From the NCBI GenBank assembly GCA_951406725.2, contig OX597815.1, positions 60,450,001-60,514,000 of the forward strand: a stretch of DNA of 64,000 bases, read 5' to 3'. This document shows, piece after piece, positions 2,491-50,621 of this stretch (positions are counted from its first letter, which is position 1; each line of letters starts with the position of its first letter). The notes below the pieces were generated by a model. It searched no databases. It was not told where the DNA came from and saw only the letters and a list, made by a program, of their open reading frames with translations. This DNA is from Octopus vulgaris (lineage: Eukaryota). Both the position numbers and the translations under genes were made by a program.

Positions 2491-4900
2491 CAAATTTCAT
2501 ATCTATTTCTTTGGTAAATCCACGAACTGTCTTTAATAATGTTTCCAGCTGTTTGTCATTTGCAGCGTATAGTTTTAGGTCATCCATATATAAAAGATGG
2601 CTGATCGTTTTGCCGTAACATTTATATCCGCATCCAGTTCTATTTAGCATATCAGATAGGGGTGACAGTGCCAAGCAGAAAAGGAGTGGAGAGAGCGTGT
2701 CTCCCTGGAATATTCCTCTTCTAATGGGGATGGCTTTGGTTTTCATGAGTCCCTTTTTTGTTTGGAGCTGTAGCGCTGTTTGCCATTTATTCATAGAGTG
2801 CCCTATGAATTTTATGATTGTTGGTGCTACTTTGTTAATGGCTAGTGTTTCGAGGATCCATGTGTGGGGGATGCTATCAAACGCCTTTTTATAGTCGATC
2901 CAGGCCATACTGAGGCTTTTCTTCTTTCTGTGGCTGTCTTCAGTTATGGCTTTATTAATCATTAGTTGATCTTTACAGCCATATGAGCCTTTGCGGCATC
3001 CTTTCTGCTCTTCTGGGAACAGTTTGTTTTCGTCCAGGTGCTTGTTCAACCTTTGCGATATCGCTGCAGTAAATACCTTGAACATTCTAGGGAGACAGGT
3101 TATTGGTCTGTAGTTTTCTGGTTTTGCTGTCTCATTTGATTTGGGAATTAAGATGGTTTTCCCCTTCGTGAGCCATTCAGGCATTGTCTCTGGCTCTGCT
3201 AGTATGTTGTTAAAGTTTTCAGCCAGCTTTTTGTGCATTCCTGTTAGATATTTCAACCAGAAGTTGGGGATCTTGTCATACCCAAGTGCCTTCCAGTTGC
3301 TTAGTCTTTGCAGTGCCTGGGTGACCTCTTCAGTTGTTATGGGGGTCCAAAGTTGTTCAGATGCCGAGTTTGTTATTTTGATACTCCTTTTTTTGGTTGT
3401 TCGTTTGCCGACCATATTTCTCTCGAGCATTCTTCCACTTCTCCTGCCGTTGGTGCTGCAGTGATTTCTATTTTATTGTTGCCAAGATCTTGGTAGAACT
3501 TTTTGGGGTTGGAGTTGAACTTTTTGTTTTGTTCAAAGAAGCGCTGGCGTTTCTCGTACCGGCGGATCCTTTGTGCTTTGGCAAGGATATCTTGCTTCAG
3601 CTTTTCTTTTATCTCAGGTAAATCTTTTTCTGTCATGTTATATTTGCGGAGTATTTTTATTTATTTTTGTTGCTCAGTAGCGATGATTGTCTGCTGATTT
3701 CATTAAGAATCGACAGATCTTTTCTCATTTTTTGTATTTTGTTTTTGATGTTATTTATCCACAGGGTTTGTTTGGGTGGTGGTACTCCTGTTTGGATGGG
3801 TTTGAGTGAGTATCCAGCTTCTTTTGTGGCTGCAGTGGCTGCTGCGTATACTAAGTCATTTAGCTAAGTGATATCGCTTTTGTTTCAGTGGCTATTAGTT
3901 CCGTGATGGCTAGGTTTATGCTGTTTATAATTGGTGTTGTTGTTTCGTCTATTTTGATTCTTGGGAGGTATGGTCGGTGGTTCATTCTGAGCTCTGTGGT
4001 TTTCAGTTCTTTGATTATTTTACTTTTATATTATCATAATCATTAGGCTCCCCTTCGCTGTTTACATCGTGTTTGTTGGGAATGTTTCGTTTGTGTTCGT
4101 GTTTTACTATTTCAGTGTTTATATTATTGGGCATTGTTGTGTGGCTTCTATCTACATTTTCCTGGTATATTTTTTCTTTTAGATGTTCTGTTTCTATTTC
4201 TGATATTTTTTTTGCGTTGAGAATGTATCTTCGTACGTTAGCTAATTTATTAGGGTTCATTGCTGTATCCAAGTCTATATTTATGTTGTTTTCCATCCAT
4301 ATTTTATATGTATGTGTTGTTTTTTCATGTTTTGGGTAGAGCATTGCTGTGAAGTATGCGTGTAAGATAGAAATGTATTCCTCACATGTCCATTTATGTC
4401 TATTGGGTTTTATTTGCGGGACATGAGGAACAACGCCCGGCCCATTATTTTGACGGTCGTCATTTTCGTAGGGTACCGGTCCGTTCATTTCTGTTGTCAC
4501 ATTATTTCGCACGTGTAGTTTTTCGTACATTTTTTGTTGTAATTTTAAAGTACGTACCGCTCGATTGTTATTCTTGGGTTGAATAATATCGGTCGCATTT
4601 AATTTCTTCGTAGTTCCTTTGTACATGGTGTTTGGGGTCGGGGATGATCTGGTGTTGATGGATCGTAATGTATCACGCATGTTTACATGTGTTGTGTTAG
4701 AGGTGGAGATGATATCGAGTCAAAATACATCATTTCGTTTCGAAAATAGTAATAAATTTCAATTAGTATTACTTACTCGGATACAGTCCAATCCTTTGTT
4801 AGTAAATCTTTGGCTCCATACGATGTCCTTGTTTTCGATGTTTGTGGATAGATTTCGGAGCTCTGTTTTTTTCCTTCTTACATCTTAAACGTCTCCCGGT

Positions 4901-4950: not shown

Positions 4951-7900
4951 ATTGTCATTTACTTTTAATCTGCATGTTTGATGCAATCACCTGCCGGGGC
5001 ACACCCAGCGCCCTAGGGCAAGTGAAGGTTAAGAGTTGTTGAAATATAGCTGAAAGCTTGGGGAGGGGAAGTAGAGATATATCTCCATGTAATGCAAACA
5101 CAAACATTTACGTTGATAGGGTTTTTCTAAGGATGTGGGCAGTACTTGTTAGCACAATCTTTTGGATTTCCTTGAGACATGGTTTTCCAGGGATATTGTC
5201 TAGGTGTTTCTGACATCCCCTTTTTATCATACCTAGGGCACCTACAACAACAGGAACAGTTTTTGTTTTAAGATTCCACATCCTCTGTATTTCGATTTCC
5301 AGGTCCTTATATTTACTAAGTTTGTCAAATTCCTTGACAGATACATTTTAATCAGTGGGGACGCTTACTTCTATTAGTCTGCAGGTATTTTCTTCCCTGT
5401 CTTTAACAATTATGTCTGGTCGATTAGCCTTGATCGTTCTGTCAGTGTTGACTGGAAAATCCCAGAGGATGGTGACATCTTTACCTTCAACAACTGGCTG
5501 AGGATGGTGTTCATACCAGTTAGCAGGAGTGTTGGATTTGTAGTGTTTACATATCTTCCAATGTATATACTGTCCTACCCTATCGTGGCGATTTTTGTAT
5601 TCGTTTGGTGTCAGCACAGGACATCCCGAAACGAGATGGTCTATCGTTTCGTCAAATGTGTCGCAGAATCTGCATTTAGGGTCAGTACCGTTTCGGAGAA
5701 CGTTAGCCTGGTAATTTCTGGTAAACAAGCTTTGATCTTGTGCTGCCATTATGAAACCTTCAGTCTCTGCTTTCAATCCAGAGCTCTTCAGCCACTGATG
5801 GGTTGTTGCTTGGTCTACATCAGCATTTTGGCTTCGGAGAATATATTGTCCATGCAGGGGCTTCTGGCTCCACCGCCTCTCAATTTGATTCTGCCCGTTC
5901 TTTTTTGCAGTCTGCTTGATTCGCTTTGCTTGCTTGGTAGCAGTGGTTTCCGGCTCTTCATCTGATTCAAGGTTAATGTCTAGATCCCTTTCGAACTTAT
6001 AAGCTTCCTTCACAATAGAATGTAGCTTTTTGCTGCTTTCGTGTTCGCACACAAGTCGCAGCATCCAGTCCTTTGTACTAGATAGGTACCTGTTCATTCC
6101 TACAGTAGAGGTCTTATAGCACAGCTCTAATTGCATCATTCCTCTCCCCCCGCTGCTTCTAGGTAGGTACAAGCGGTCTACATCTGCCTTAGGGTGGTGC
6201 ATGCTCTTGGATGTCAGTAACTTTCTTGTCTTCCTGTCCAAGCGTTGGAGTTCCGTAAGGTTCCAGTTAATGATGTTAAAACTGTACTGGACTACTGGAA
6301 GTGCCAGGGTGTTAATGCAATTTTTGGAGTTGAGTTCAGTCTTCAGTACAATTCTCCTATAGTATTCCTTTCTTATTTTTTCCTTCATAGTAGCATGATG
6401 TATACCATCTCCTTCGTTGATTCCTAGGTATTTGTAACTTTCCTGTGGGTCAAGTTCCTTGATGGTAGTGTCAATATCTAATTTAACAGAAGCTGTTTGC
6501 CTGAGCTTGCCTCTTACAAAAGTTGCTTTAGCACACTTATCAAGGCCAAAATCCATTCCGATATCATTGCTAAACTCTTTAACAGTTGTTAGCAGCCCTT
6601 CTAGCTCTTGGTCATTCCTGGCAAACAGCTTTAGGTCGTCCATATAGAAAAGGTGGTTTATTAACTTACTAAAAACTTTGTACCCATATCTGGTACTATC
6701 CAATTCGTTTGAGAGTGGGATCAGTGCCATGCAAAAAAGTAATGGAGAGAGGGAGTCACCTTGAAAGATGCCTCGTTTGATGTTGATGCTGTTGGACTGG
6801 CTCATCCCATTACTATGGCTTAGAAAGAGACGTGTGTTCCACATGGTCATGCTATTCTCTAAGAATTTTGAGACGACAGGAGAGATCTTGTATATCTCAA
6901 GGGCCTTGAGTATCCATTTATGTGGGGCACTGTCATACGCTTTCCTGTAGTCTATCCATGCCATACTCAGGTTTTTGTTTTTGCTCCGGCAATTCTCTAC
7001 AATCATTCTGTTTATGAGCAATTGGTCTTTGCACCCATAAGAGTTTCTTTTACAACCTTTTTGAGCTTGTGGAAGGATAGAATTTTGTTCAAGGAAAGCG
7101 TACATTCTCTCCGTTATTACGGATGTGAGGATTTTGTAGGTGGTGTTGAGACATGTTATTGGCCGGTAATTCTTTCGGTTTTTTGTGTCTTCGGTTTTAG
7201 GTAATAGGTAGGTGGTTCCTTCAGTCAGCCAAGCAGGTATTTGCTCTGGGTTCTGAATGACATCAGACAGAGATGCAGCGAGATGTTCGTGTACCTCTGT
7301 CAAACAATTCAGCCAGAAGTTAGGGATCCGATCCAGTCCTGGGGTTTTCCATTTATGAGCCTTCCTAAGGACACACCTTAGCTCCTCTATTCCTATTGCT
7401 TCCCATTTCTGTTCTTCAAGTTCATCCAGTCTCTCTTTCTCACGTTCTATCCAGTCAGCCTCAGCATTAAACTCTTTTTCGTTGCTCCATACCTTCTTCC
7501 AGAACTCCTCCACTTCCTCAATCTTAGGTGGATCTTCTATGTGTATTTTATTTTTTTGACAATTTCCCTATAAAATTTCTTTGCATCTGTCTTAAAAAAT
7601 TTATTTTGTCGATAAAATTTGTTTCTTTTGTCACACCTTCTAAGCCGTTGAGCTTTCAACTGTATCCGTTGTTTCAACAGTTCCTTAGTTGCAGGGAGGT
7701 TTATGAGATCTTTGATTTTATATTTTTGCTTGATTTTTCTAGCTTTTCTCGGCTTAATATTCACTCCTCTAGCAAGCTCATCGAGAACATCCGCCCGCAG
7801 AGATTCAATCTCTTTTTGTATCGCTACTTTCCACTTAGGAGGTTCATTGACATGCCTGGCCTTTTTCTTTGTCATCTTAATACCTAGTTGGGTAGTTACT

Positions 7901-9542
7901 ACTTTAGCAGTGGAATAAATGAGATTATTTAAGGTTGTCAAATCATTCCCCTTATTTCTTAAGATCTGTCCTAGGGCAACGTTATATGTCATGATTGTGT
8001 TGTTATTTCTTGTGCCATTTGAAAACTTTGGTAGTGGTTCTCTATTAACCATGTCAGTGAGCTCAATCTTGCCGAGTTCTCTCATAATGTCCACTTTTGC
8101 TTCCATAATCTTTTCTCTATTATTTACCTCAAATTCTATGTCATATCTATTTTGGTTTTCTTGAGGAAGGTCTACGTTCTCCTCTTTTTTCAAATCTCTC
8201 GTCTTCGCTATTCTTTGTTTAACTTCTCCATTGGGAAGTTGATTTGCCGCTTGTACACTGGCTTCTGAGCTACTGTTACCTATTTCGTCTACATTGTTGC
8301 TGTTTTCTTTTGGTCTACCATGAGCTATTAGTGTCCTAATTTTGTCAATTTCAGCGTCAGTTAGTCTTTTGTTTTTAATTATATCTCTGCGTACATTACT
8401 TAATTTATTTGCGTCTATATATCTACGTACGTCATTGCCTACTGAATTTCTCCATGAGATGTATGTTTGTACACTGAGGTTATTGTTTGGGTTTAGTTGG
8501 GCTGTATAAAAAGCTTTCAACACATCTCTATAGTCCTCTCTGGTCCATTTTATACGTTTTGCTTTAGGTGGTGTTTTTGGTGGTGTCACTACAAGTCCAG
8601 AGTTAGAAGTATTCTGGTTCTGGTCACCTGGTAGATCGTCTTTTTGGGAGTTTGTTCCAGCAGCAAACTTTTCGACCCCAGTCTGGTTCCCTACTGGGTA
8701 ACGCGGTCCTTGTTGTCCCGGGCGATGACCGATCCGGCATGATTTTTGGCTTGTTTTCATTAAATGATTGACGGCGACATCAGAGGGGTCCATTTTTTCA
8801 GAGTCAACTTTTTGACAAGACGCCGCCTCTGTGACGGTGACGTTAGAGGAAGGGGCTGTTTGTACAGGGTCAATTTTTTGACAAAACACCGCTTCTGAAT
8901 TCTCCGAATTAATATATTGTTCATATCGAACTCGCATAAGACTTACAGATCGAAATTCGCCTCTATTTATTTTGGTAGTCATGTTTCCGGGCATAACTGT
9001 TCAGTGACTTTCTAAATTCAGTGACCAATTTGCTCTTTTTTGCGTTTGTTCGTGAAAAATCGCTTTGTTTTTGTTTTGTTTTCGTCCGCGTAACGTGGTT
9101 TTTCTTTCTGTGTGTACGTGTGAGCGCGTGTAAGCATTATTTATGCTTTATAATTAAAATGTGTACATGTATGCACAAACAGTTGCATGTATACTTTACA
9201 ATTAAAATGTCTACGTGTATGCATAAACAGTTGCATGTATACTTATTTAATTAATTAATTAATTAATCAATTTATGTACTTACTGTCTTTTAAGAGCTCT
9301 GATGTTCGCTTCTATTTCTTATGCATGTCACATGGAAATATTATGCATAAAAGAAAGAAAACCATACTATATATGGCAATAATAGTTCGGACTTTTTAGT
9401 TACTTTGCCTTAAAAGAACATTTGGAAAAGATATTTTGTGGAACCTTTCTTCCATTGCAACGATGTTGTTGGATTAAATTCGTTTTTTGGAGAGAGGCTC
9501 CCAGGGAACATCCATGTTGTTATTCAGCCCGGAGCTCTCTTC

Positions 9543-19684: not shown

Positions 19685-20050
19685 GACGGTGAGCTGGCAG
19701 AAACGTTAGCACGGCGGGTGACATGCTTAGCGGTATTTCGTCTGCCGCTACGTTCTGAGTTCAAATTCCGCCGAGGTCGACTCTGCGTTTCATCCTTTCA
19801 GGGTCGATGTAATCGACTTAATCCGTTTGTCTGTCCTTGTTTGTCTCCTCTGTGTTTAGCCCCTTGTGGGTAGTAAAGAAATAGGTATTTCGCCCGTCGC
19901 TATGTTTTGAGTTCAAATTGCGCCAAGGTCGACTTTAGTTTTGATCCTTTCGAACTCGATAAATTAAATACTAGTTGGGATCGATGTAATCGACTGCCCC
20001 CTTCCCCAAATTTCGGGTCATGTGCCTAGAGTAGGAAAGAGCATTATTAG
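19685..20050 (+). mobile_element. Nested tRNA-derived Nin-domain SINEs with two different tails
   Basis: A/B boxes (tggcagaaacg, gagttcaaattcc); Nin-like gtcgac..tttcatccttt..ggtcgat; first tail ends gaaata at 19883, then a second SINE body resumes at ggtatttcg. Confidence 0.8.
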
Positions 20051-22807: not shown

Positions 22808-22814
<7 letters not shown>

Positions 22815-23118
22815 TAGAAGAAATGAGGTAATCAGATCGGATGGTTCATATTTATAGATATTTATTTATATATTACATTTTTTACATATATATCATGTCA
22901 TTCAGATCATATCATTCGGATTAGCGCTTTCTCCCAATCGAGTGGGGTTTTCAAATCAAATTAAATTTGATTTGAAAACCCCACTCGATTGGGAGAAAGC
23001 GCTAATCCGAATGATATGATCTGAATGACATGATATATATGTAAAAAATGTAATATATAAATAAATATCTATAAATATGAACCATCCGATCTGATTACCT
23101 CATTTTTTCTAATATATA
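22808..23118. repeat. 311-bp palindrome with 1-nt loop at 22963
   Basis: 155-bp arms are reverse complements with one mismatch seen (22820/23106); sits in (TA)n. Confidence 0.95.
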
Positions 23119-23579: not shown

Positions 23580-23738
23580 TGCGCAGGCGTGGCTGAGTGG
23601 TAAGAAGCCTTCCACTCAACCACGTAGTTCCGAGTTCAGTCCCACTGCGTGGTATCTTGGGCAGGTGCTTTCTACTATAACTTCGGGCCGACCAAACCTT
23701 GTGAGTGGATTTGGTAGACGGAAACTGAAAGACGCTCG
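23580..23738 (+). mobile_element. tRNA-derived SINE (CORE-like), 5' part
   Basis: gtggctgagtggtaag..gagttcagtccc..cttgggcagg; same family as 30700 and 44177. Confidence 0.85.
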
Positions 23739-23801
23739 CTGTGCAGCTGTGCATGTATGTATGTATACATACATACATACGTACATACATACACACATAT
23801 A

Positions 23802-23835
<34 letters not shown>

Positions 23836-35359: not shown

Positions 35360-36650
35360 CGAGGGGCGTTCAATAAGTAATGCCCCTGACCCACTTCCCA
35401 TAGCAGTAGAGCAACGAAACTTGGAACAGTTATTAGTCTTTTTCTACATAGGAACCACCCAGAGATACGCATTTCTCCCATCGTTTGATGCAGCTCTGAA
35501 GACCGTTTTTGTAGAAGACTCCAGCTTGGTCTTCCAACCACGACGTGACTTCAGAAATCAAGGCTGCATCATATGGGAAACGCTTTCCTTTCAAAAACAA
35601 CTTCATGGCTGGGAAGAGGTGAAAATCAGAGGGTGCAAGGTCAGGAGAGTAGGGGGTATGGGGGAGGAATTCATAGCCGCACGCCTGTGCTTCTGATCTG
35701 GCAACACGCGAGTTGTGGATCGGAGCGTTGTCCTGCAGGAGGAGGATGCCTTTGCTGATCTTGCCCCGCCTCTTGATTTTGATAGCTTCTCTTAATTTCC
35801 TCAAAAGTGAAGCATAATAGACTCCTGTAATTGTGGCACCCTTTGCCAGGAAATCTGTCATCACTACTCCGTCTTGGTCCCAGAAGACTGTAAGCATGAC
35901 CTTGCCAGCGGAGGGCTGCACCCTTGCCTTCTTTGGAGGAGGTGAGTCACGGTGCTTCCACTGCATTGACTGGGCTTTGGTCTCTGGATCATAGTGATGG
36001 ACCCAGGTTTTATCCTATGCAATCAGTCTTTTGAAAAATTTTGACTCATCTTCTTGGCACATCTCCAAATTCATCCTCGAGCAATCGACGCGTTTTGCTT
36101 CTGGAAAGGTGTGAGCAATCTGGGAATCCATCTGGCAGACACCTTTTGCATATGCAAATGGTCATGAATGATAGTTTCCACAGACCCGGTACTAATCTTG
36201 ACCTCATGGGCTATTTGGCGAATAGTTATGCGTCGATCTTCCAAAATGGCAGCCTCAACTTGACAGACAGATGCCTCATCAATGGCAGAAGGGGGCGACC
36301 AGATCTGGGAGCTGTTTCCACAGAGTTCCGACCATGTTTGAATTCACGAGGCCAGCGTTTTACAAGGTCATATGATGGGGCATCATCACCATAAGTTACT
36401 TTCATTTCATCAAAAGTCTCCCGTGGTGTGCGTCCTATCAAATACAAAAACCGGATCACTGCTCGACACTCAACAAGCTCCATTTCACACTTGACTCGTT
36501 TCAAACACATGTAAATCAGAAACCACAATTAATTCAGAGCTGTAATTTGCCACTTCATCTATAGAGATATAAATGATTGCACATGCAAAATTTCAGCAAG
36601 ATCAAACAACTGCAAGTGGGTCAGAGGCATTACTTATTGAACGCCCCTCG
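35360..36650 (-). mobile_element. Full-length mariner DNA transposon (1291 bp)
   Basis: 37-bp TIRs cgaggggcgttcaataagtaatgcc(c/t)ctgacccactt; TA duplication at 35358-35359 and 36651-36652. Confidence 0.95.
35433..36483 (-). pseudogene. Mariner DD34D transposase, frameshifted
   Basis: MELVECRAVIRFL HTH; GKVMLTVFWD; QDNAPIH; YSPDLAPSDFHLF. Confidence 0.92.
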
Positions 36651-37203
36651 TATACACATAAATAGTTAGATAAATAGATAAATAGATAGATAGTTGGATG
36701 GAACAAATTGTTAATAACTATTAGATCCGACCAGTATTAGCAATCATTATTTTCTAAACATTAGATTCTTCATAGACACCGACAAATACCAATGATTGAA
36801 AAAGTAGAATGAGATGCTAATGTACATTAAGACTGATTCTAAATACCTCCACGTAACAATAAAACATTTAGTTAGTAATATAAACTGAATATATCATCTT
36901 ATATATCCTCTATTTGAGCCACTTTCAACTAAGCTGCCAACTTCTATGATAATGTATGATAATATTTATCTAAAATATTGAGCAACATGTTTGATATACA
37001 ATCATGTTTTATTATTTGTCAAATATGAATCGTTCCAAGCATTTATTTATGCAAAATGGAAATATGTCAGACTAAACCAAAGTTCCTTATTAAATTTTCG
37101 TCGTGACCATCCGTCTAGTTCCTTTCGGACTACATTACTCGATGTTTCCTGGTTTACTAATACTTTATGAAATGACAAAAAGCATATGGTATAGTCACGT
37201 CTG

Positions 37204-37433
37204 GGCGGCGATCTGGTAGAATCGTTAGCACGTCGGGCGAAATGCTTAGCGGTATTTCGGCTGCCGTTACGTTCTGAGTTCAAATTCCGCCGAGGTCGAC
37301 TTTGCCTTTCATCCTTTCGGGGTCGATTAAATAAGTACCAGTTACGCACTGAGGTCGATATAATCGACTTAATCCGTTTGTCTGTCCTTGTTTGTCCTCT
37401 CTGTGAGTAGCCCCTGTGGGTAGTAAAGAAATA
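37204..37433 (+). mobile_element. Full-length tRNA-derived Nin-domain SINE with Tx1-like tail
   Basis: A/B boxes and Nin-like body; TSD ggtatagtcacgtc(Y)g at 37188-37203 and 37434-37449. Confidence 0.9.
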
Positions 37434-37812
37434 GGTATAGTCACGTCCGGAACGGCATCAATGATTGGTCTGCTTGTTCAGGAGTAACCTAGAGCAAATT
37501 CGACCTAAGTTGCACCGACCGGCCCCAGATTAAACTATGAAAAACTTGCTCAAGGAGCTGCGCAGCGGGAGGGAACCGAGAACCACAGTGTGAGGCAAAC
37601 TTTTTACCCACGGGGCAAGGCTTGTGTTTTCCATTTACAAAAACCATTTTTACAAAACCCACGCTTACGCAGTTTCAAATATGTGTGTGTTAGAATACGT
37701 GTGTGTGTTTGTGATGCATGTATGTATATGTATATGTATGTAGATGTATATATATATATGTGTGTGTGTATATATATGTATGTATATGTACGTATATATA
37801 TATGTATATGTA

Positions 37813-37846
<34 letters not shown>

Positions 37847-38457
37847 GCATACATATATTTACATATATACATATATAGCAATATATTTACATGCATAATA
37901 TACATATGCATATATATATACAGATATATACATATACCTATACATACGTTATATATTATTTATAAATGAAGTAAAGTTATGGGTGGAAAATATGATTGAA
38001 CTTTCAACGACGAACATGCATGTAAACACGTCTGCCGTTATAGACTGTTGTTCCGGTGAAGAAACGTAAACAGCACATACATACATACGTACACAGATAG
38101 TTATAAATAAATATATATATGTGTATTTGTATACATATCATATGTAAATGTGTGTGTGTGTGCATATGTGTGTGCGTGAGTGTATGTGTGTGTGTGTGTA
38201 TGTGTGTGTGCATTTGTGTGTGTATATTCCTCGTGAAAAAATATACCAACGGCTTCAACTTCTTCATAGCATGTTTATGATCAACATGTTTATACGAGAA
38301 CATGCATACCGATATACTGAAGTAGAGGATACGTATAAATATATACAGTCTGTGCATATGTGTATGTTTATATTATACGTACATGCATATATACACAGAA
38401 AATGAGAACGAGAGAAAGAGAGACAGAAGCAAAGAGTGAGAGAGAGAGAGAGAGGTA

Positions 38458-38488
<31 letters not shown>

Positions 38489-38790
38489 GCAGACAGACAC
38501 GCATATTTTTGAATCAGTTTTTTGATTATATTGAATTATATGGTTGTATCTGTGTGATTCTTTTATGACTGATTAAATTCTTTAGTTTGTAGATAGTTGT
38601 TGTTGTTTTGTATGTGTGTGCGTGTGTGCGTGCATGTGTGTATGTGTGGGTATGTGTGGGTATGTGTGTGTGAGTGTATGCAAGGTACGACTTTCTTTTA
38701 TGTGTCTGAATAAAACAGACATGTGTATACGTGTATGTCATAATGTGTCCAGTGTAAGTAAACTAACATCCAAACAAAGAATTCGAAGGT

Positions 38791-38846
<56 letters not shown>

Positions 38847-38869
38847 CTGTGTATGCGCGCGCGTATGTA

Positions 38870-39688
38870 TCTTAATCACCATCTGGCCGAGCTTGCTCAG
38901 ACATCTTTAACCCGCGTACGCCATCCATCTCTGTCCTTCACTAGTTAAAGGAGGTTTTCAGAGAAGCATCCAGAGTCTCTGGTGAGTTGAGCTACATATG
39001 TTATATTCGGACGACCAGCTTCGGTACAACCATGCCTTGGCATCCACACCAGTAGGTCACTTGCCAGTTCTTGTTTAGCTCAGCAACGTCCTTTTCCTTG
39101 TAAAGGTGGAATCAGGCATGAGATTTCCATTTGTTGGTGGGATGTGTTCTCCAAGATATGTTTAAGATTCCTCTTAACACTTGAGTGTAAGTTCCATCTA
39201 GCTCGGATTCCAGCTTTTTGTTAACCGTCCAGGCTGATACTCTCTATAAAAGGACTGACTACGCAGTTGAACGGGAAAGTTGTCTAACAGTGTTAATTTC
39301 CAGACAACATCCAGTTTGTTTAAGGCCGACAATGCTTTCGCTGTCCTTGTTTGAACATCCTTTCCAGAGCCAAAGTAAAATGAAAATATCGGAGTACTCC
39401 AGAGGGACACATTGGCACCTTATCCCTTCGTGATCACTATAGATTATTCCTCAGAACATCGCTTGACAATCTAAAAGGCCTCAGTTTCACACTCAGGAAA
39501 AAATTGATAGGGTATCCCGCTCAAAAAGTAACTGATTCAGAGTATGCTGATGTTTTAGCCTTGACACACTGTCAAACTCCATCTAATTACTTCATAGCCT
39601 AGAATTAGCTGTACATGATGTTGGACTACTTGTTGATCCTAGTGAAACGAAATTCGTTGCTCACAATCAACAAGGGTCCATCACCAAC

Positions 39689-39690
<2 letters not shown>
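38870..39690 (-). mobile_element. Decayed RTE/RTE-X-like LINE with inverted 5' segment
   Basis: Minus strand: FGSGKDVQTRTAKALSALNKLDVVWK..LASDLLVWMPRHG..GRP. Plus strand 39385-39690: GVLQ/GDTLAPY..TDSEYADVLA. Confidence 0.75.
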
Positions 39691-39759
<69 letters not shown>

Positions 39760-39945
39760 CTACAAAATTAGAAAATGGAGAAACATACTTAAATCAATAA
39801 AACATCAACCATCAGATGATACCCAATCAATACTTTATTACACCATTACATAACAGTAAAGGCATTATACAAAATATATTGTAAATATAAATAGACAAGG
39901 AAATAGAAATATAAAATATAAAATATAATATGTAATTATATCATA

Positions 39946-40054
39946 TCTGACAGCTGTTTCGGCAGTAAGGGCAATCATGCCTCATTTAACCTATAAGCCA
40001 TAAAGGCAGGTATAAATGAGACATTAACAAGGATGCCCCACGGCCTCTTCAGAG
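39946..40054 (-). ncRNA. Hammerhead ribozyme with very long stem II
   Basis: Minus strand TCT-CTGAAGA-GGC..(~80-nt hairpin)..GCC-GAAA-CAGCTG-TC-AGA. Confidence 0.7.
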
Positions 40055-40912
40055 AATTTAATTTATTATAATTGTGAAAAAAATTTTTTATCCATATACA
40101 TATAAATATATAAAATGTAAAATATAAAAACTTGTGCATAAACTCCATATTGCTACACATATATATATATACTCATTGATACAATAATGCAAGATAAACA
40201 AAACAAAATAAAACAAAATATATATCAGTATATATATTAATATTAATAAGCACAGTTATTTTACATATTTGGCTAATTATTTATTTTATTTTATTTTATC
40301 ACATTTTTAACTTAAGTATTTACAATTTATTAACTTATAATTATTTAACTTCTGTTATTTACTTATATACGATTGCATTAGTGAGTCCCCCATTTGATAT
40401 TATTTAATGCCTAATCTTGTTTATAATGGAACAGGATTTATTAAGTAAAAAAGATATATATTTATAATATAAAAATTAAACTATACTTTATAATTTAGCG
40501 TACATGCGATTATAGCAAATTACGGTGTAATCAGTAACCGTTATGTTGACTATAGAAAAAACCGGTGTTAAATACTGAGGGTACCTAGTGAAATAACATC
40601 CGATATCGTGATATCAAAGAGATCAAAACTTCGGACAACCTAGCGCTATAGTAGGATTATATAGACAAACCTCCCCAAGTAGTGACCCTGGCTAAAATAT
40701 TGGTCTACAAAAGTATTTAATGACGTTCATAAATATTATGTTTTCCCTTTCTTTCTGCGTTCTTTATTCTCTCTTTACTGTTCCCCTTTTCTTTCTCTAC
40801 CTCTCTATATATCCTAGGATATTTATATACAATCTTTTACTGGTTTCAGTCACTTGGTTGAGGCTAGATATATAATACAATATAATACAATATAATACAA
40901 TATAATATAATA

Positions 40913-40953
<41 letters not shown>

Positions 40954-41056
40954 CGGAGTAAACACATAAATGTGAAACAAGGTGGAAAAAAGAGTACTCA
41001 AATACCAGTGGTAGAGTAATATGCTTTATTTTAAGCAGCAGAAAATTCAACAAAAT

Positions 41057-41094
41057 CTGTTACTCTGAGTTTCTCGTTGCCGTTCATCAGACAG
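41057..41094 (-). ncRNA. Minimal hammerhead ribozyme in the inverted pLTR
   Basis: Mirror copy of 44062-44099. Confidence 0.7.
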
Positions 41095-41781
41095 TTTTTG
41101 CTAGAATGGAACTTATATATTAATTCAATCTATACTCTTACAAACGCTACACCTTTAAAAAGAAATGGACTTGTTTGATTGGCCCTTTAGAAAAAACGGT
41201 CAATCTTCGAGCGATAAACAAAAAGGTCAAAAATATATGTATATATATATAAAAAAACTTATAAAAATTATAAAAATTATAAAATCCGAGGAAAAAACCG
41301 AGGAAAAAACCTATTGCCGTTAATGAAGACAGTACAAATTAATGCATAGAAATTAAACCTGTTATAAATACTGCAATACATATTTATATTAAAATCCACA
41401 TATATATATCAACATACACAAAAGGATGCGCGTAAACGCCATACATACATATACAGACGTATGAATATGAATCTAAATTATACACATAAAAGCATGTGTA
41501 CATATATTCACGCAAACCGTCTCGCACGCAAGCTAAAATTCATCTATGTAGCAATTCTCATATACTGAGCAAGGAGGGGGAACGAAAGAAAGGGAAAGAG
41601 AGAAAAAGGAACGAAGGAGGGGTGGGGAAAAAACTTGTAGCGATGTTATTGGCATCTATAGAGGCCAGTATACATACACAAGTTTGAATTGATACATATA
41701 CATACCGTCGTGTGTATGCGTGCTTAAGCACATGCATACTTTCACTTACACATACACAGATACGCATGCTTACAAATACAT

Positions 41782-43041
41782 ATGCTTTGCTATACACATA
41801 CTTATATAAACATTCTAATTTTGACAACATTGCTTTTTTTTAAAAAAAACATTGCTTTTAAAAAATGTATGCTCATAGGAGCCTTTATTCTCCATAATCT
41901 AAAAATAGAATTCCCATTTATAGATGCAGGTCTATATAGGGATGACGGCCTTATAGCCACGCATAATCTAAACGGCCATGAATCAGATAGACTTAGGAAG
42001 GACCTTATAGCTTTCTTTCAAAGGATGGGCTTACGGATTACGGTAGATACTAACCTGAATAGTGTAGATTTTTTAGACGTAAATTTTAACGTAAGATCGG
42101 ATAGATTTAAACCTTTCCGTAAGCCCAATGAAAAGCTATCGTATATTAGCAAAGATTCGAACCATCCACCAGTTATCCTTAGCAACTTAGTCAGCAATGT
42201 AGGTAGAAGAATATCTTCAATTTCTTCGGACGAGGCAGCATTCCATAATGCTGCACCTTATTACGATAGCGCATTAAAGAATAGTGGATTCTCGGAGAAG
42301 ATCCAGTTCAACCAGCTTAATGCTAATAATAATGCTGCACGAAGAACTAGGACCAGGAAAGTTTTGTGGTTCAACCCGGCTTTCAATTTGGCCGTAAAGA
42401 CTAATATAGGTAAGGAATTTTTGAGATTAGTCTCTAAGCATTTTAAGCAGGGTCATAAATTCTACAGAATATTTAATAGAAGAACCCTGAAGGTTAGCTA
42501 TTCTTGTTGCAGAAATTTCGCCTCTTACATTAGCCAACATAATAGGAAGCTAATTGAGATTAGACATGGTGCCGAGCCCATTAAGAAATGTAATTGCAAA
42601 AACGAAAGCTCCTGTCCGTTAGAAGGGAAATGTCTAGTGAAAGGAGTAGTTTATAGAGCCAAGGTGCAAGTGGAAGGCTCATCGGAATACAAGACATACA
42701 CAGGGGCTTCAGAAAATTCATTTAAAACAAGATTTTATTCTCATAAGAATTCTTTTAAATACCCAGAGAATAGGAAGAAAACCAGCCTAGCAAAATATGT
42801 CTGGGAACTAAAAGAAAAGGAAGCCCCACCTTTCAACGTGACATGGAGCATTCTGGACAGGGCGGCACCATACAGGCATGGAGCTTACAAATATAATTTC
42901 AAGTGCAGGCTTTGCTTATTAGAGAAAATGCACATCTTATTCAAAGACAATAATTCTTTGAATCAAAGAAGTGAGTTAATGAACTTATGTAGGCACGCGG
43001 CTAAATTTAAGATGTCGAATATAAATATACCATTTGGATAG
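41782..43041 (+). CDS. 5'-truncated PLE RT (from motif C) plus GIY-YIG endonuclease, open frame
   Basis: GLYRDDGL, VDFLDV, SNHPP, CNC..CPLEGKC..VVYRA..YTGASENSFKTRFYSH, CRLCLLEK..LNQRSE..CRH; homology starts ~41868, and upstream codons come from the inverted pLTR. Confidence 0.9.
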   Translation: MLCYTHTYINILILTTLLFFKKNIAFKKCMLIGAFILHNLKIEFPFIDAGLYRDDGLIATHNLNGHESDRLRKDLIAFFQRMGLRITVDTNLNSVDFLDVNFNVRSDRFKPFRKPNEKLSYISKDSNHPPVILSNLVSNVGRRISSISSDEAAFHNAAPYYDSALKNSGFSEKIQFNQLNANNNAARRTRTRKVLWFNPAFNLAVKTNIGKEFLRLVSKHFKQGHKFYRIFNRRTLKVSYSCCRNFASYISQHNRKLIEIRHGAEPIKKCNCKNESSCPLEGKCLVKGVVYRAKVQVEGSSEYKTYTGASENSFKTRFYSHKNSFKYPENRKKTSLAKYVWELKEKEAPPFNVTWSILDRAAPYRHGAYKYNFKCRLCLLEKMHILFKDNNSLNQRSELMNLCRHAAKFKMSNINIPFG

Positions 43042-44061
43042 AGTATATATTTTGTATTTTGATTTTTGATTTTGATTTTGACTCTTGAGCGCTACGACGG
43101 ATCTATAGCAAAGTCTTATTGTTTCTACATATATATTAGGAAAAACCTACAAACTTTGTTTTCATGTTATTGTATTGCATAGGATTACCTTGATTATTTA
43201 TATTACCTTGATTATTTATAAATGACCCAAAATAGGATGTTATATTTTATTTTATATGTCTTTCGTATATATTTTTATTAATGCACCCATTTTTTAAAAG
43301 CAATGTTTTTTTTAAAAAAAAAGCAATGTTTTCAAAATTAGAATGTTTATATAAGTATGTGTATAGCAAAGCATATGTATTTGTAAGCATGCGTATCTGT
43401 GTATGTGTAAGTGAAAGTATGCTTGTGCTTAAGCACGCATACACACGACGGTATGTATATGTATCAATTCAAACTTGTGTATGTATACTGGCCTCTATAG
43501 ATGCCAATAACATCGCTACAAGTTTTTTCCCCACCCCTCCTTCGTTCCTTTTTCTCTCTTTCCCTTTCTTTCGTTCCCCCTCCTTGCTCAGTATATGAGA
43601 ATTGCTACATAGATGAATTTTAGCTTGCGTGCGAGACGGTTTGCGTGAATATATGTACACATGCTTTTATGTGTATAATTTAGATTCATATTCATACGTC
43701 TGTATATGTATGTATGGCGTTTACGCGCATCCTTTTGTGTATGTTGATATATATATGTGGATTTTAATATAAATATGTATTGCAGTATTTATAACAGGTT
43801 TAATTTCTATGCATTAATTTGTACTGTCTTCATTAACGGCAATAGGTTTTTTCCTCGGTTTTTTCCTCGGATTTTATAATTTTTATAATTTTTATAAGTT
43901 TTTTTATATATATATACATATATTTTTGACCTTTTTGTTTATCGCTCGGAGATTGACCGTTTTTTCTAAAGGGCCAATCAAACAAGTCCATTTCTTTTTA
44001 AAGGTGTAGCGTTTGTAAGAGTATAGATTGAATTAATATATAAGTTCCATTCTAGCAAAAA

Positions 44062-44099
44062 CTGTCTGATGAACGGCAACGAGAAACTCAGAGTAACAG
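44062..44099 (+). ncRNA. Minimal hammerhead ribozyme in the 3' pLTR
   Basis: CTGT-CTGATGA-aCG(GCAA)CGa-GAAA-CTC(A)GAG-TA-ACAG; predicted GUA triplet. Confidence 0.7.
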
Positions 44100-44131
44100 A
44101 TTTTGTTGAATTTTCTGCTGCTTAAAATAAA

Positions 44132-44176
<45 letters not shown>

Positions 44177-44177
<1 letters not shown>

Positions 44178-44389
44178 TCTTTACTCTTTTTTTACTCTTT
44201 TACATGTTTCAGTCATTTGACTGCGGCCATGCTGGAGCACCGCCTTTAATCGAGCAACTCGACCCCGGGTGTTATTCTTTTTGTAAGCCCAGTACTTATT
44301 CTATCGGTCTCTTTTTAACCGAACCGCTAAGTAACGGGGACATAAACACACTAGCAATGCTAGGGGGACAAACACAGACACACAAACAA

Positions 44390-44457
<68 letters not shown>

Positions 44458-44597
44458 GACAGGCTTCTTTCAGTTTCCGTCTACCAAATCCACTCACAAG
44501 GCATTGGTCGGCCCGGGGCTATAGCAGAAGACACTTGCCCAAGATGCCACGCAGTGGGACTGAACCCGGAACCATGTGGTTGGTTAGCAAGCTACTT
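44177..44597 (-). mobile_element. tRNA-derived SINE, 3' portion, split by the Tx1 LINE
   Basis: Joins to 50038-50077 to rebuild a complete SINE. Confidence 0.9.
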
Positions 44598-44825
44598 TAT
44601 TTCATATAATTTGCCATTTAGGCATTTACAAAGAGGGGACAAACAAGGACAGACAAATATAAAGGGTGAAGTAGCTTAACACAGTTACAATTTTCGAATG
44701 AAATTACGGATAAGATTATAAACAATGAATTTTACGAAGACAATGTTTAAAAATATTAATGATCATGTCGAAGGACGGACACCCAGCCATCCGGGTAGAA
44801 CCTTTACTTTCTGATCCGGTCACAC

Positions 44826-47800
44826 TTACCTGGTGCCAAACATACCTATCTTGCATGCCACAGGCTTCCATCTTTTCACAAACATATCTCGTGACAGACA
44901 CCTCTTCTCCAGCCTGATTTTGCTACTGAGGTGGTAACTAAAAAAGTTAATCAACCCCTGGCCGGAGACAAAGGTGCCTGTCACTATACCTTTCGTACGC
45001 GTCTTCCATACTGTTTCTTTCAGTATGGCTACTACACAGAAAAAACAAGCCTTTCTTTCCCTGTTAAGGAAAGGGGGCGGCACAATCTCGATGATAGACT
45101 CAGCTGATAGCTATACTCTTCCCATCACTGACAACAGTTGTTCAACAAAAGCTATCAGTCCCGATAACTCCGGACACTCCACGAATGCGTGCAAGACGGT
45201 CTCCCTATCCTGCTCACATCGCGGGCATGTCGGCGAGATGGCACTACCGTGCCTTGACAGCTTGTCGCGAACAGGTAAAGCCGCACGGAAACACTGCCAG
45301 GCCAGGGATTTCTGGTAATTATCCCAATACCCCGGCCCGAACGTCCTCCGGAACAGGTTGACCAACTGATTTTCATCGTAGCCCAGGCTCTCCCCCAAGG
45401 CGTCTTCGGACTTAATCTCCACTAACCCGCTATAGAAATCCGTGGTGGAACTCCTGTTGCCGGCGTTGCCCACCCGAGATAGTAGCTGGAGCGCCTGACG
45501 GCACTCCAAATGCCATTCACTCAGTTTAGGTCTCCGCTTGATCCATGCACCGATGTCCGTTAGGGATGTTAACTGGGGAAGGTAGAACCGGACGTGCGGT
45601 GACCACACCTGCTCTCCATCCAGGTAAAGCCAGAGGTGCCTCAACCTTAACGCGAGTTTTCGCATCCTCAGCCAAGGCATCCCTAGCCCACCCTTTAGCG
45701 GTTTCTGGCAGCAGACAGAGCGCTTTACAAGTGGCTTTCCTCCTTTCCACAAAAATCGGAAAAGGATTCTCTCCAACTTGTTCAGCCACAAATCGGGGCA
45801 AGGCACCACGGTCAGACGGTAGGTGATTACTGATGCTATAAACATCTGCACCACCTCCGCCTTCCCTAGCAGGGATAACGCCCGCCCAGACCAGGTCTGG
45901 GTTAGAGCGGTCACCTTGTTGGCCACCTCACTCCAATTTTTCTCAATCTGGAGGTCTGGCCCGAACCAGACTCCGAGCAGCTTAACAGGACCTTCCGTCC
46001 AACGCCCTACGACGTTATTGGACGGCATCGGCTTGCCCCTCCAGGTGCCGAGTTGCAAACCGACCGACTTGTCCTTGTTAACCTTTGCTCCTGCCACCGC
46101 CTCGTAGCTTTTGATGGCCTCTTCCACCACTGGAAGCTGGCCTTCGTCTGCCACGATGATGGAGGTGTCATCCGCATACGCCGTAGCTCCTCTTCCACAC
46201 CATAGATCATGCGGCGCGCCCCCTAGTGCCTCCAACTTCCGCAGCAAAGGCTCAAGAGCCAATACGTATAGGAGCGAGGACAGGGGACACCCTTGACGAA
46301 CTGAACGCTCGATCCTGAATGGCTTCGAAAAGGAACCGTTCACCTTGACTACAGACTCGATGTCGCTATACAAAGCAGCGATCCAACCTCGAAAGGTCGG
46401 GCCTAGACCAGCCTCTCCGAGGACCGCCGCCAAGTACCGATGGTCGACCCTATCAAATGCTTTGGACTGGTCTAAATGTACCAGTGCTCCCCCTGCGCCA
46501 GAAAGCTTCCCCACCCTCTCTAAGGAGTAGCGTATAAGGTGGAGATTGTCGTAGATCGTTCTGCCGGGGATAGCGCACGTTTGCGCTTCCCCGACAAGTT
46601 TGTCCACGACCCGCGCCAACCTTTTTGCTAGCACCTTGGCCAGAATCTTTAACTCTGTGTTTAACAGAGTTATGGGCCTGAAGTTCCCTATCTCGTCCCC
46701 CTTGTTCGGGTCCTTCCTGATCAACGTCACCGCCCCCCGGCTCGCAGACTTGGGAATTCTCCCATTCTACTGCCAGTTGGCGTAGACGCTAGCCAGCAGG
46801 TGCCCGAACAAGTCTGGCATACTTTTGTAAAATTCATAGGGCAGACCATCGAGACCCGGCGATTTCTCCCCAGGGCACTTGCCCAACACCTCGATTACTT
46901 CATCGGCTGTGATTGGCCCTTCACAGCACTCAGCCTCTCGTGTCGAGAGGCGCGGGCCACCAGACAGGAAGTCCCTAACGGCCTCACCATGATCCAGCGT
47001 CCTGCACCTCCCGAACAACTCGGCGAAGTGCTTGTGAAGTGCCTCACACATCTCGTCCCGCTCCTTGATCGTGCATCCGTTTTCATCAACAAGTGACCCA
47101 ATTGTGGCATCGTTTCCACGCTGTGTTTCTATCGTACGGGCCCATCCGGCAACATTAATTCCCTCACGGCCCAATGCTCGTACTCTAGCCCGAACTCTAC
47201 ATTCCTCATGTTTGGTTTTGAGGTGACGGTCTAATGCCGTTCTCGCCGCTAAAATGTGAGATGCAGAGCCCAACCTCAACGCCTCCTCTAAGTTCTTAAC
47301 TAGTTGCCCTTCTATTCTAGCCCTATCTAGTCTTAGTTGTTTACTAAATCTAATGGACTCGAATCGAATGGCTCTTTTGAGGGCGAACCACCACCGGTTA
47401 TTAACCACGGCTCCGGTTAACGCCCTCTGCACTAACACCTTAATCCGGCTACGGTATGCCTCACGTGTCAAAATAGACTTGTTCAGCTTCCAGTAGCCGG
47501 TTCCTATCTTAAGTGTGCTATCTATGTCCAGTCTACACGTGACCATTCTATGGTCAGTATAGGGCACCTGGACGAGCTGTGGACAACTAAAACTAGACTT
47601 ATCTCTAGTTCTTATCACTATCCTGTCTAGATAAGACTTGAACCTTCCGTCGCCACTCATCCAGGTCCACTCTGGGACGTTCGGATGGTCAAGTCTGTAA
47701 CGATCTGCTAGCTGAAACCACTTAAGCAGATCCACGAGACGTGAGTTCACTTTCCTATAGATCGAGCCAACGCTATCGATGTGTACGTCAACGATAGCAT

Positions 47801-48227
47801 TAAAGTCCCCTAATATCACTAAAGTCTTCGACGTCACGAGAAAGCCCTCTAGGCGCCGATAAAAATCAGTTTGGAAACCTCTAGCACAAGGTGCATAGAG
47901 TCCGATCAACCTGAAGGCCTTACTGTTGTATGTCACATCAAGGACGACCAGCCCACCTTCTGGGTCTACATAGACTGTACTTGTCTGTAGAGCCAAGTCT
48001 TTACGGATCAGTACCACTACGCCCCCTCGCCCTCCGGTCTGGCCAGGAGACATGATTTTCTCGTAGCCATTCAGGAGAGGCGAGAAGGTTTGTAGGCTGT
48101 CCAGCTTGGTCTCTGTAGCAACCATCACATGTATATCATGTGATCTGAGGTCGTCGAGGAAACAAGCCTGCTTCCACTTCGAACTCAGACCACGCACATT
48201 TAAACAACCAAGGTTAAGCGAAGCCAT
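44826..48227 (-). pseudogene. Tx1 ORF2 (APE endonuclease, RT, zinc finger) in one frame with two premature TAG stops (46767, 45111)
   Basis: LNVRGL, ETK, GDFN, SYLDR, TDH; FRPITLLN, LDQSKAFDRV, VRQGCPLS, YADD; CPRC..ETVLHAFVEC; the three ORF pieces are in the same frame. Confidence 0.92.
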
Positions 48228-48244
48228 TACAAAAAGTAAAAGTT

Positions 48245-49672
48245 CTACTTACATTTCGTTGGAGAGGTGGGGGCTGACCTCACCACACGTTTGTGGGCCC
48301 CTTCTTTCTCCTCTTTCTTCAGATAGTCCGGCAAGTTCGCGATATGCCGGATGGCGTTTGGGTGTCTGTCTTTTAATTGTTTGAACGTTGTTTCTGCAAT
48401 CCACGCGTGTCTATTTCGATCTTTGTATTTGTTGTACAGTCTTGCTGACTGATGCTGAACCACAATATCGTTTATGTATTTGTCTTGTGTGTCGAATTCA
48501 ATTAATATGAGTTCATTTTCTTTTTTGTCTTCTTTTTCTGGGCCAGTTGAGCGGGATTTTTTTTTCCGTGTCTGTGGTGTGTCTTTGTTTTTATTATTTT
48601 TTGTAGGGGATGTGGACGGGGATGATGCACGAATTCTTTTACGAACTGGTGTAAATCCCCCCTCTGATACCTCCATGGTATCGTCTGGGGTAGCAATAGT
48701 TTGTTCGGTAGGCGCCGCAGTTTTTAGGGGGTTGGGAGGTTTTAATAATGTAGGGGTTTGTGAGTGCGAGGGCTGGGTTTTTTCTTCAGTCTGTTTTGGG
48801 GTTGGCACCGTAACAGCAGGAGTGGGATTTTTTGTTTTTGTAGGGGTAGGTGAGTTTGCAAGGGTAGGGACTTTTTTGTTATCTGAGGGGCCTGGTGTCT
48901 GCGGTTTCTTTTGCTTGTCTGGACAGTCTACACGAATGTGGCCCTTTTTGCCGCAGGCGTAACAGGTGGGTTTTCGGCCTTCGACCTGTACCCTGAGGGC
49001 TACGTTCTCGCCCACGAGCACCCTCTCAGGAAGGAGCTGCAGGTCCTCCGCTGTTCCTTGAATTAATATATTAATGTTACGCCCGAGCCAAAATAGAGGG
49101 GCAGAGCATGTTACTTCTAGTATTTTAATTTTGTCCGCCCTTTTATATAACAGGGCGGCCACTACCTCTACCGGATCTACTTCCGGCGGGGCTTCTACAA
49201 TCCTGACCCGGGACGTCCTGCGTCCCTTATAGCTCGGGAAAAGTACCACCTCCTTGGTTTTTAGGGGGTTCACAGAATGCCCGCGGGCCATTTCTTCCCC
49301 CGAGAAGCGGACATCCACAGTTCCATATGCCCGTTCCCTGGCGACGTACACGATGTCCTTCCAAATCGGGGACAGGCATTTCTCGATGGTGTTTTTTTCA
49401 AAGTGTTTGAACCTTCTGCTTTGTGGACAGAAGGTTTTAAACACTACGGTCCGCTTCTCGGTCTCCACGATACTGGCGGAGGGTGATATTTTAACATCAC
49501 CACCCTCCTCTTGCATTCTTTTAAATAGCTCGACGAGCTGATTGACGTTGATGTCAATGTTCTCGGTAGCCACTGCGGCTACCGCAGAAAATTTTTTAAC
49601 ATTGCTCTCCTCAAGAGCACTACTTTCGTGAATAATTTCAACAGACATTATTCTATTGAAATTAGACAACAC
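48245..49672 (-). CDS. Tx1 ORF1 nucleic-acid-binding protein
   Basis: CCHC knuckle CYACGKKGHIRVDC followed by a Pro/Thr/Lys-rich tail; lies directly upstream of ORF2. Confidence 0.85.
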   Translation of the reverse strand: MLSNFNRIMSVEIIHESSALEESNVKKFSAVAAVATENIDINVNQLVELFKRMQEEGGDVKISPSASIVETEKRTVVFKTFCPQSRRFKHFEKNTIEKCLSPIWKDIVYVARERAYGTVDVRFSGEEMARGHSVNPLKTKEVVLFPSYKGRRTSRVRIVEAPPEVDPVEVVAALLYKRADKIKILEVTCSAPLFWLGRNINILIQGTAEDLQLLPERVLVGENVALRVQVEGRKPTCYACGKKGHIRVDCPDKQKKPQTPGPSDNKKVPTLANSPTPTKTKNPTPAVTVPTPKQTEEKTQPSHSQTPTLLKPPNPLKTAAPTEQTIATPDDTMEVSEGGFTPVRKRIRASSPSTSPTKNNKNKDTPQTRKKKSRSTGPEKEDKKENELILIEFDTQDKYINDIVVQHQSARLYNKYKDRNRHAWIAETTFKQLKDRHPNAIRHIANLPDYLKKEEKEGAHKRVVRSAPTSPTKCK

Positions 49673-50037
49673 AAAAATTACGAATATTGGTTTCCCACAA
49701 AACTGGGAAACCTATAGAAAGTTTTTCTTCCAAAGTAGTTCAAAAAAGCAGTTCAAAAATTCCAATTCCCACCCCCATTCGGGGGAGGGGCACGAAAATA
49801 GTCTGGCAGGACTATATATAGTCACGTAAATAAAAAGCCACAATGGCTAACAGTTCAACGGTAAGAAATTATCCAATTATTCCCCGGTAAAACCGGAGAA
49901 CAAGACAGTTCAGCAACGTTTAAAGACAAATTTTCAGTAGTAGAAATTCAACAATTAACAACACAGCAAAATTCTTACAGGGAAGAAAACGCGTCCAAAC
50001 AGTAGTACGGTAAGCAAAGTCACTCTTCAGTCAGTGA

Positions 50038-50072
50038 GGTTAGCAAGCTACTTACCACACAGCCACTCCTGC

Positions 50073-50077
<5 letters not shown>
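50038..50077 (-). mobile_element. 5' head (A box) of the SINE split by Tx1
   Basis: Minus strand aggtgcaggagtggctgtgtggtaagtagcttgctaacc. Confidence 0.88.
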
Positions 50078-50168
<91 letters not shown>

Positions 50169-50621
50169 TTTTACTGGCTTCAATCACTTGATTGCAGCCA
50201 AACGTATGTATTTGCTGATAGTTTTTTTGTTACTCATAGTTCTTTTTACTGTTTTTAGTCCTTATCACAGAGATTCTTCATATATCTATCCTTATACACA
50301 CTTTTTAAAATTTATCTTATTCTAATTCTGGTCTCCTGAATTTATATCTCCTGAATTTCATTTCCTGCGTACGTATATGCATTTTCATTGGTCACACTTT
50401 TCTATGTATAGATATGAATGTAAATGCTTTCCCAAATAAATTGCACTTCATGTTTGAAGTTCAGAATAGGCTATAAGGTTGGGCTCAAGCACTCAACTAT
50501 GAGAAAAGGCAAGAAAGCGATTTTTAAACTTCTACCTTTTATATTTACTTCTTCCTTTTCCTTTTCTCGCTTTTTCTTTCATCCTATCGTCCTGATTTTA
50601 GCTTGTTATCGCATGTGGGCA

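Follow-up and report, generated by a model that had tools for sequence, protein, structure and literature searches.

A Tx1-type LINE and an abundant tRNA-like SINE of Octopus vulgaris share a 3' tail: a candidate partnership

A stretch of 64,000 nucleotides from Octopus vulgaris (GenBank assembly GCA_951406725.2, contig OX597815.1, positions 60,450,001 to 60,514,000 of the forward strand; hereafter "the window", whose own numbering is used throughout) contains a long interspersed nuclear element (LINE) of Tx1 type at 44598..50037 on the minus strand. We found that the last ~60 nt of this element, made up of a 26-nt block, a hairpin and a terminus, are common to a tRNA-like short interspersed nuclear element (SINE) with two copies in the same window. 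A common tail is an accepted mark of a partner LINE, as set out in passages of PMC3747384, and the sequence comparisons detailed below make it quite likely that the SINE is copied in trans by the protein of the second open reading frame (ORF2) of this Tx1 lineage.

The tail common to LINE and SINE

The features that bear on the tail are these (TSD, target-site duplication):

44632..44657, minus: 26-nt pyrimidine/G block common to the SINE (blastn, alignment, shuffles)
44612..44624, minus: hairpin of 4 bp with a 5-nt loop (folding, pair comparison; relatives keep the stem and vary the loop)
44598..44603, minus: terminal GAAATA common to the SINE (alignment)
37202..37433, plus: complete copy of the tail-sharing SINE (sequence comparison, contigs)
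37188..37201, plus: 5' TSD of that copy, 14 bp (TSD comparison)
37434..37447, plus: 3' TSD of that copy, 14 bp (TSD comparison)
19686..19883, plus: second copy, lacking 32 nt internally and nested at the fixed site in the head of the family (sequence comparison)
19884..20048, plus: remainder of a sister-subfamily copy with the same head and body and a different tail ending in ATT repeats

The block of the LINE, read from 44657 to 44632 on the minus strand, matches 37377-37402 of the complete SINE copy and 19826-19851 of the second copy (both plus strand) at 25 of 26 positions each. The best block match in 2000 dinucleotide shuffles per SINE copy had 7 mismatches, against the 1 observed, and blastn within the window joined the LINE block to the two copies with E values of 2.8e-7 and 8e-8. 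When the last 60 nt of the three sequences are aligned, 41 of the 60 LINE positions are invariant. The hairpin lies in register, and all four of its pairs form in all three sequences; its loop has 4 nt in one SINE copy. Two of the four pairs are altered on both sides, a result that 48 of 500 shuffles equalled and that, coming from three sequences, is weak when taken alone. The LINE and both SINE copies end in GAAATA and carry no poly(A). The proposal of an earlier, sequence-only reading of this DNA, that the two elements have the same poly(A)-free 3' tail and that the SINE ending at 19883 bears it as well, is thus borne out.

Other details of that reading fared less evenly. It had put the TSDs at 16 bp for the LINE and about 14-17 bp for the SINE; the 16-bp duplication of the LINE and a 14-bp duplication of the SINE at 37202-37433 were recovered, but a 17-bp SINE duplication was not confirmed. 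No TSD can be measured for the copy at 19686..19883, since another copy of its own head comes next. The "Nin-domain" label that had been given to the SINE was dropped, as two published mollusc Nin motifs of 12-13 nt (Lottia and Littorina, supplement of PMC4758252) are unmatched in both copies at up to 2 mismatches, in a motif test and not a profile search. A Meta domain after the tRNA head was also considered; one 13-nt bivalve MetaSINE motif (supplement of PMC4824008) is unmatched in the SINE, which is a weak test. In the SINE head a B-box-like GTTCAAAT is visible; ARAGORN called 0 tRNA genes, and Rfam gave no tRNA match over 37150-50200. No run of four T is present in the copy.

Internally, the shared block is a 10-nt unit present twice. 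A scan of the whole window for the block within 5 mismatches found it nowhere else; a 6-mismatch (20/26) version lies mid-body in the SINE that hosts the LINE, at 44386-44361 (minus), just after that SINE's microsatellite. The ends of one presumed R4/Dong-like element and one Penelope element in the window are without the block, which is absent from every LINE end in the window but this one. A better match of the tail to a different LINE clade, named as refuting in the sequence-only reading, did not turn up. Over 37150-50200, Rfam returned sub-threshold microsatellite matches only. Searches with the first 21 nt of the block retrieved two stretches in metagenome contigs, judged on reading to be chance, two in prokaryote metagenome-assembled genomes (MAGs), likewise taken as chance, and 0 in viral contigs.

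The two families and their landing sites

The LINE and its surroundings have the following layout (UTR, untranslated region; LTR, long terminal repeat):

44598..50037, minus: full-length Tx1-type non-LTR retrotransposon, 5,440 bp, no poly(A) (TSD boundaries, ORFs, Pfam)
48245..49648, minus: ORF1, 467 aa, with a zinc knuckle (Pfam zf-CCHC, E 2.2e-5, above the curated cut-off)
44826..48227, minus: ORF2, with APE-type endonuclease, reverse transcriptase (RT) and zf-RVT (Pfam Exo_endo_phos, RVT_1, zf-RVT)
44598..44825, minus: 3' UTR, 228 nt (ORF end, TSD boundary; a family contig spans 44632 to 44893)
44669..44677, minus: antisense piece of 9 nt, the exact reverse complement of letters 1-9 of the LINE's own TSD
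44582..44597, minus: 3' TSD copy, 16 bp (TSD comparison)
50038..50053, minus: 5' TSD copy, 16 bp (TSD comparison)
50038..50075, minus: 5' piece, on the A-box side, of the host SINE's head, which the LINE splits (sequence comparison)
44178..44597, minus: remainder of the host SINE, which belongs to a second, probably CORE-type family; its end is approximate (sequence comparison)

Two in-frame stops in ORF2, at 46769-46767 and 45113-45111, indicate that this copy is dead. A Pfam scan of ORF1 found zf-CCHC and no other family; a separate ORF1 with a zinc knuckle is a feature of the Tx1 clade. The best relatives of solved structure for ORF2 are L1 ORF2p. With its RT region, Takifugu proteins automatically labelled "Transposon TX1" give 218 bits, and human L1 gives 124 bits across that region. 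Among the best 120 of 311 protein matches, the closest named relative is from Argonauta hians, at 62% identity; together with the repeat landscape, this would suggest an octopod. An RT tree, in which no L1 or curated Tx1 row was present, left the deep fork open, and an ESM Atlas search gave RT clusters without names. From these similarities we file the element as Tx1-type, within the L1 group. Target-sequence preference has been found in many Tx1 members (passages of PMC4494074). Among the protein matches, a 58% identical piece is filed under a Herbaspirillum MAG; it is probably host DNA that was binned as bacterial.

Contigs from four public runs (DNA-like or unlabelled, of 24 listed, none of them recorded as RNA) were aligned to 44570-45020; 21 of 416 loose-end rows and 15 joints are listed for this alignment. 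One contig of 262 nt, at a depth of 1555, runs from the end of ORF2 through the block (44632 to 44893) with 3 differences to the LINE; that run covers the SINE locus's unique flank at a depth of 20. The ratio of family contig to unique flank is roughly 55-80 in three runs, which is a rough guide and no copy number. In 7 of the 15 listed joints, contigs match the ORF2 end, cannot be aligned in the middle of the UTR, and resume at the block. Four of these seven include LINE-specific letters upstream of the block and are therefore not SINE copies that happen to lie nearby. Among these relatives the stem of the hairpin is kept and the loop varies; in one group (7 contigs, agreement 0.66) the loop is CTTGT, the SINE's own. 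The family contig carries the ORF2 end and the block in one piece, and diverged relatives keep the block; it is therefore no accident of one junction. It is part of the LINE family's 3' UTR, family-wide, and the possibility that a chance scrap of SINE had been mistaken for a LINE tail, which the sequence-only reading had itself raised, did not materialize.

The LINE occupies one fixed base in the tRNA-like head of the host SINE, which it splits; an uninterrupted relative of this host lies near 23583-23820. The CORE-type label is drawn from a short motif named in passages of PMC5786205. Three different tails join the landing base in one run, and two further joints, from diverged copies, do likewise. 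Among the 21 listed loose-end rows, none places the LINE tail at another flank. Thus, the LINE is site-specific. The landing sites of the LINE, of the dispersed SINE copy and of the nested one all begin with purines followed by GTA and differ beyond that. As a separate observation, a loose end behind 44599 comprises two contigs that carry an unrelated T-rich 3' end at the same landing site; another element may use this site. The host SINE, for its part, may be a composite in which an old tail survives, and it also bears short modules resembling the body of the tail-sharing SINE.

Within the 3' UTR, the 9-nt antisense piece has a length that was reached in 2 of 3000 UTR shuffles. It is predicted to pair with the read-through target sequence (z -1.4), and antisense-like letters stand at the same place in the tails of relatives (12 contigs, agreement 0.61); by eye, they lie much nearer to the hairpin in relatives that lack the block. 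The junction of LINE tail and target spells AATAAA, and LINE transcripts would plausibly run into the target for this reason. A doubtful interpretation, which we put forward tentatively, is that the Tx1 tail would combine a handle for ORF2 with a guide, the antisense piece pairing with the landing site and so fixing the insertion of the LINE. The pairing partner would then be, just as tentatively, the displaced DNA strand or its read-through copy, and, with no greater assurance, SINEs that carry the handle without the guide would scatter or nest in themselves. If true, this would amount to RNA-assisted target choice in a relative of L1, and one lineage would have split into subfamilies, each with a SINE head to itself.

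The tail-sharing SINE is far more abundant. Three runs have between 255,592 and 439,173 contigs that align to it, and the fourth has 3,856; of the loose-end rows, 24 are listed and 1244 are not. At SINE position 37398 the majority or near-majority letter makes the block 26/26 to that of the LINE. The tail ending in GAAATA is joined to position 37251 of the SINE's own head in 861, 988, 502 and 25 contigs of the four runs, and the copy at 19686..19883 is an example of this join at a fixed base. Neither the site specificity of the LINE in another SINE's head nor the nesting of the tail-sharing SINE in its own had been part of the sequence-only reading. The SINE copy used as reference differs from the majority just before its end and favours contigs running on into GGTAT, so the nested fraction of SINE copies is not derivable from these counts. 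Behind 37343, an alternative continuation corresponding to the sister subfamily's tail appears in 1055, 1480, 1285 and 12 contigs. A sister SINE with the same head and body and another tail points to tail exchange just after the last hairpin of the body.

Three minor observations concern these SINE ends. The terminal GAAATA (37428-37433) is the reverse complement of letters 3-8 of the SINE's own nesting site (37253-37258), a match noted post hoc and of 6 nt only. In loose ends behind 37415, found in all four runs, some SINE ends seem to repeat the terminal unit in part, with AGAA following GAAATA. Further, the other SINE tail, at 20015-20048, forms, by eye, a hairpin of 4 pairs whose 5-nt loop differs from CTTGT by one letter; ATT repeats follow, and the two SINE tails may be related to each other.

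The probable partner of the SINE

We propose the following course of events for the partnership. The SINE would have gained its tail by template switch or recombination just after its body's last hairpin. The ORF2 protein would bind the block and hairpin in place of poly(A), nick a purine-GTA site, and prime reverse transcription at GAAATA. The endonuclease on which the SINE relies would prefer the SINE's own head site, with the proposed result that copies nest. The sequence-only reading had named this Tx1 family or a close relative as the partner: the tail is indeed family-wide in LINE and SINE, whereas the landing site of the window's subfamily differs from that of the SINE. As LINE and SINE land at different fixed sites, the partner is probably a sister Tx1 subfamily rather than the one represented in the window; a single Tx1 lineage made up of several subfamilies is the simplest account.

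A number of observations weigh against this proposal. No listed row has the SINE tail at the LINE's exact site (395 loose ends are unlisted) or the LINE tail at the SINE's nesting site (1244 unlisted); with neither cross-placement among the listed rows, the sister subfamily is not seen in these data. The TSD comparison sets one LINE copy (16 bp) beside one SINE copy (14 bp), and all RNA steps of the model are inferred. Three of the seven joints that resume at the block have sides of 20-30 letters, a length that repeats can produce. Relatives without the block account for the loose ends behind 44624 (8, 14, 12 and 1 contigs in the four runs) and for the joints 44604-44781, 44606-44887 and 44635-44692; they retain the hairpin and terminus, and their existence means that the block is not needed by every member. 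The hairpin folds weakly, with z values of -1.7 for the LINE tail and -0.14 and -0.01 for the SINE tails. A hairpin of 4 pairs and a 5-nt loop is visible by eye in the other SINE tail too, of which the window has one copy, and the hairpin may thus not be specific to Tx1. Stringent recognition of the tail by ORF2, as the sequence-only reading had supposed, is no more than putative, given the block-less relatives and the weak folding.

Two other accounts of the shared tail deserve consideration, and we hold both to be unlikely. The window's own subfamily could be the main partner, with a loosely specific endonuclease, the site fidelity of the LINE coming from its RNA, and passengers without the antisense piece scattering or nesting. 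Its block is 26/26 to the SINE majority, the landing sites have purine-GTA in common, and the LINE has the 9-nt antisense piece, whereas in the SINE no more than the terminal 6 nt are antisense to the nesting site. Yet the missing placement of the SINE tail at the LINE's exact site among the listed contigs tells here too, one listed joint (44594-44633) being ambiguous; the SINE's loop fits another subfamily better, and the SINE's depth exceeds that of this subfamily by orders of magnitude. That same numerical excess would suit a transfer in the reverse direction, in which a Tx1 ancestor captured a piece of the abundant SINE and a different LINE moves the latter. Such a capture, which we likewise think improbable, could explain why the block is near-identical while neighbouring letters diverge, why some Tx1 relatives lack it, and why the host SINE has a 20/26 version. 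It accords poorly with the block's equal distance from the same terminus in LINE and SINE, with its retention in relatives whose remaining UTR no longer aligns, and with the sharing of hairpin and terminus as well. Further, the long TSD and fixed nesting base of the SINE suit a Tx1-type enzyme (judging from passages of PMC4494074), and a SINE with two tails fits the gain of a tail by the SINE.

Chance could act through low-complexity convergence or through a scrap of SINE at the junction of one LINE copy, and it is very improbable. In its favour, the block is a duplicated 10-nt unit, and the first 21 nt of the block do occur by chance in two metagenome stretches and two prokaryote genomes. The shuffles, however, never approached the single mismatch observed, and the explanation is refuted at the level of the family by the family contig and by diverged relatives, in which block and ORF2 form one continuous stretch.

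Known systems and other elements of the window

A close parallel in the literature is found in crocodilians, where SINEU was assigned to Tx1-Mar LINEs by shared targets and no LINE with the 3' end of SINEU-1 was found (Kojima 2015, passages of PMC4494074). As there, we see a Tx1-type LINE that prefers a site in another transposon, is a proposed mover of SINEs, makes a 16-bp TSD and is associated with tandem insertions; unlike SINEU, which in the same passages has small nuclear RNA heads and poly(A) tails, the octopus pair shares its 3' end, lacks poly(A) and targets SINE heads. A short structured 3' end shared with an L1-group LINE is also known from ZmSINE2/3 and LINE1-1_ZM of maize and sorghum and from SINEX-3_CR and L1-1_CR of Chlamydomonas. 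These plant and algal pairs have been taken as cases of stringent recognition (Ohshima 2012, PMC3472496; Ohshima 2013, PMC3747384; both in part); they differ in that the LINE is L1, not Tx1, and the passages describe no fixed landing site. With the classical stringent pairs, UnaSINE/UnaL2 and the bivalve SINEs, the octopus SINE has in common a tRNA-like head, a swappable LINE-derived tail and a small hairpin, although the partners there belong to other LINE clades (passages of PMC3747384 and PMC11481361). For the bivalve SINEs these are CR1, CR1-Zenon, L2 and Nimb, with no mention of Tx1 in the main text of PMC11481361. The table of 58 SINE/LINE pairs excerpted from PMC3747384 has 3 L1-clade tails and none labelled Tx1.

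Annotations of Octopus vulgaris count L1-Tx1 elements (13 recently active families) and very abundant SINEs; the passages describe no partner, tail or target (PMC13282606, PMC8967140). SINEs fill about a tenth of this genome (passages of PMC13282606). Tail-sharing between Tx1 and a SINE in octopus was not found in the literature searched, a provisional result that excludes most subscription papers, Repbase and Dfam; passages of PMC5804259, PMC5786205, PMC7245038 and PMC10294476 had nothing further on it. A shared Tx1 tail would name the engine of one large octopus SINE family, for which the literature searched names no partner LINE. If true, the partnership would show, in an animal, a member of the L1 group selecting RNA by its tail and without poly(A), and it bears on whether the relaxed poly(A) recognition of L1 is derived, a question raised in passages of PMC3472496. 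Block, loop, antisense piece and landing site vary among natural subfamilies, which thus offer a direct test of recognition and targeting.

Several further elements lie in the window. Beside the host SINE, at 41019-44137, is a Penelope-like element flanked by 847-nt inverted repeats that are 99% complementary; its ORF (41728-43041) has, by eye, an RT end and a GIY-YIG-like C-terminus, with no Pfam match. Two RT elements at 2453-3472 and 5348-9000 (minus), which we take to be R4/Dong-like from a C-terminal motif, served as outgroup only. Fragments of a mariner-like transposase were recognized by eye at 35433-36528 (minus), and a near-perfect 155-nt palindrome, with 1 nt between its arms, spans 22808-23118.
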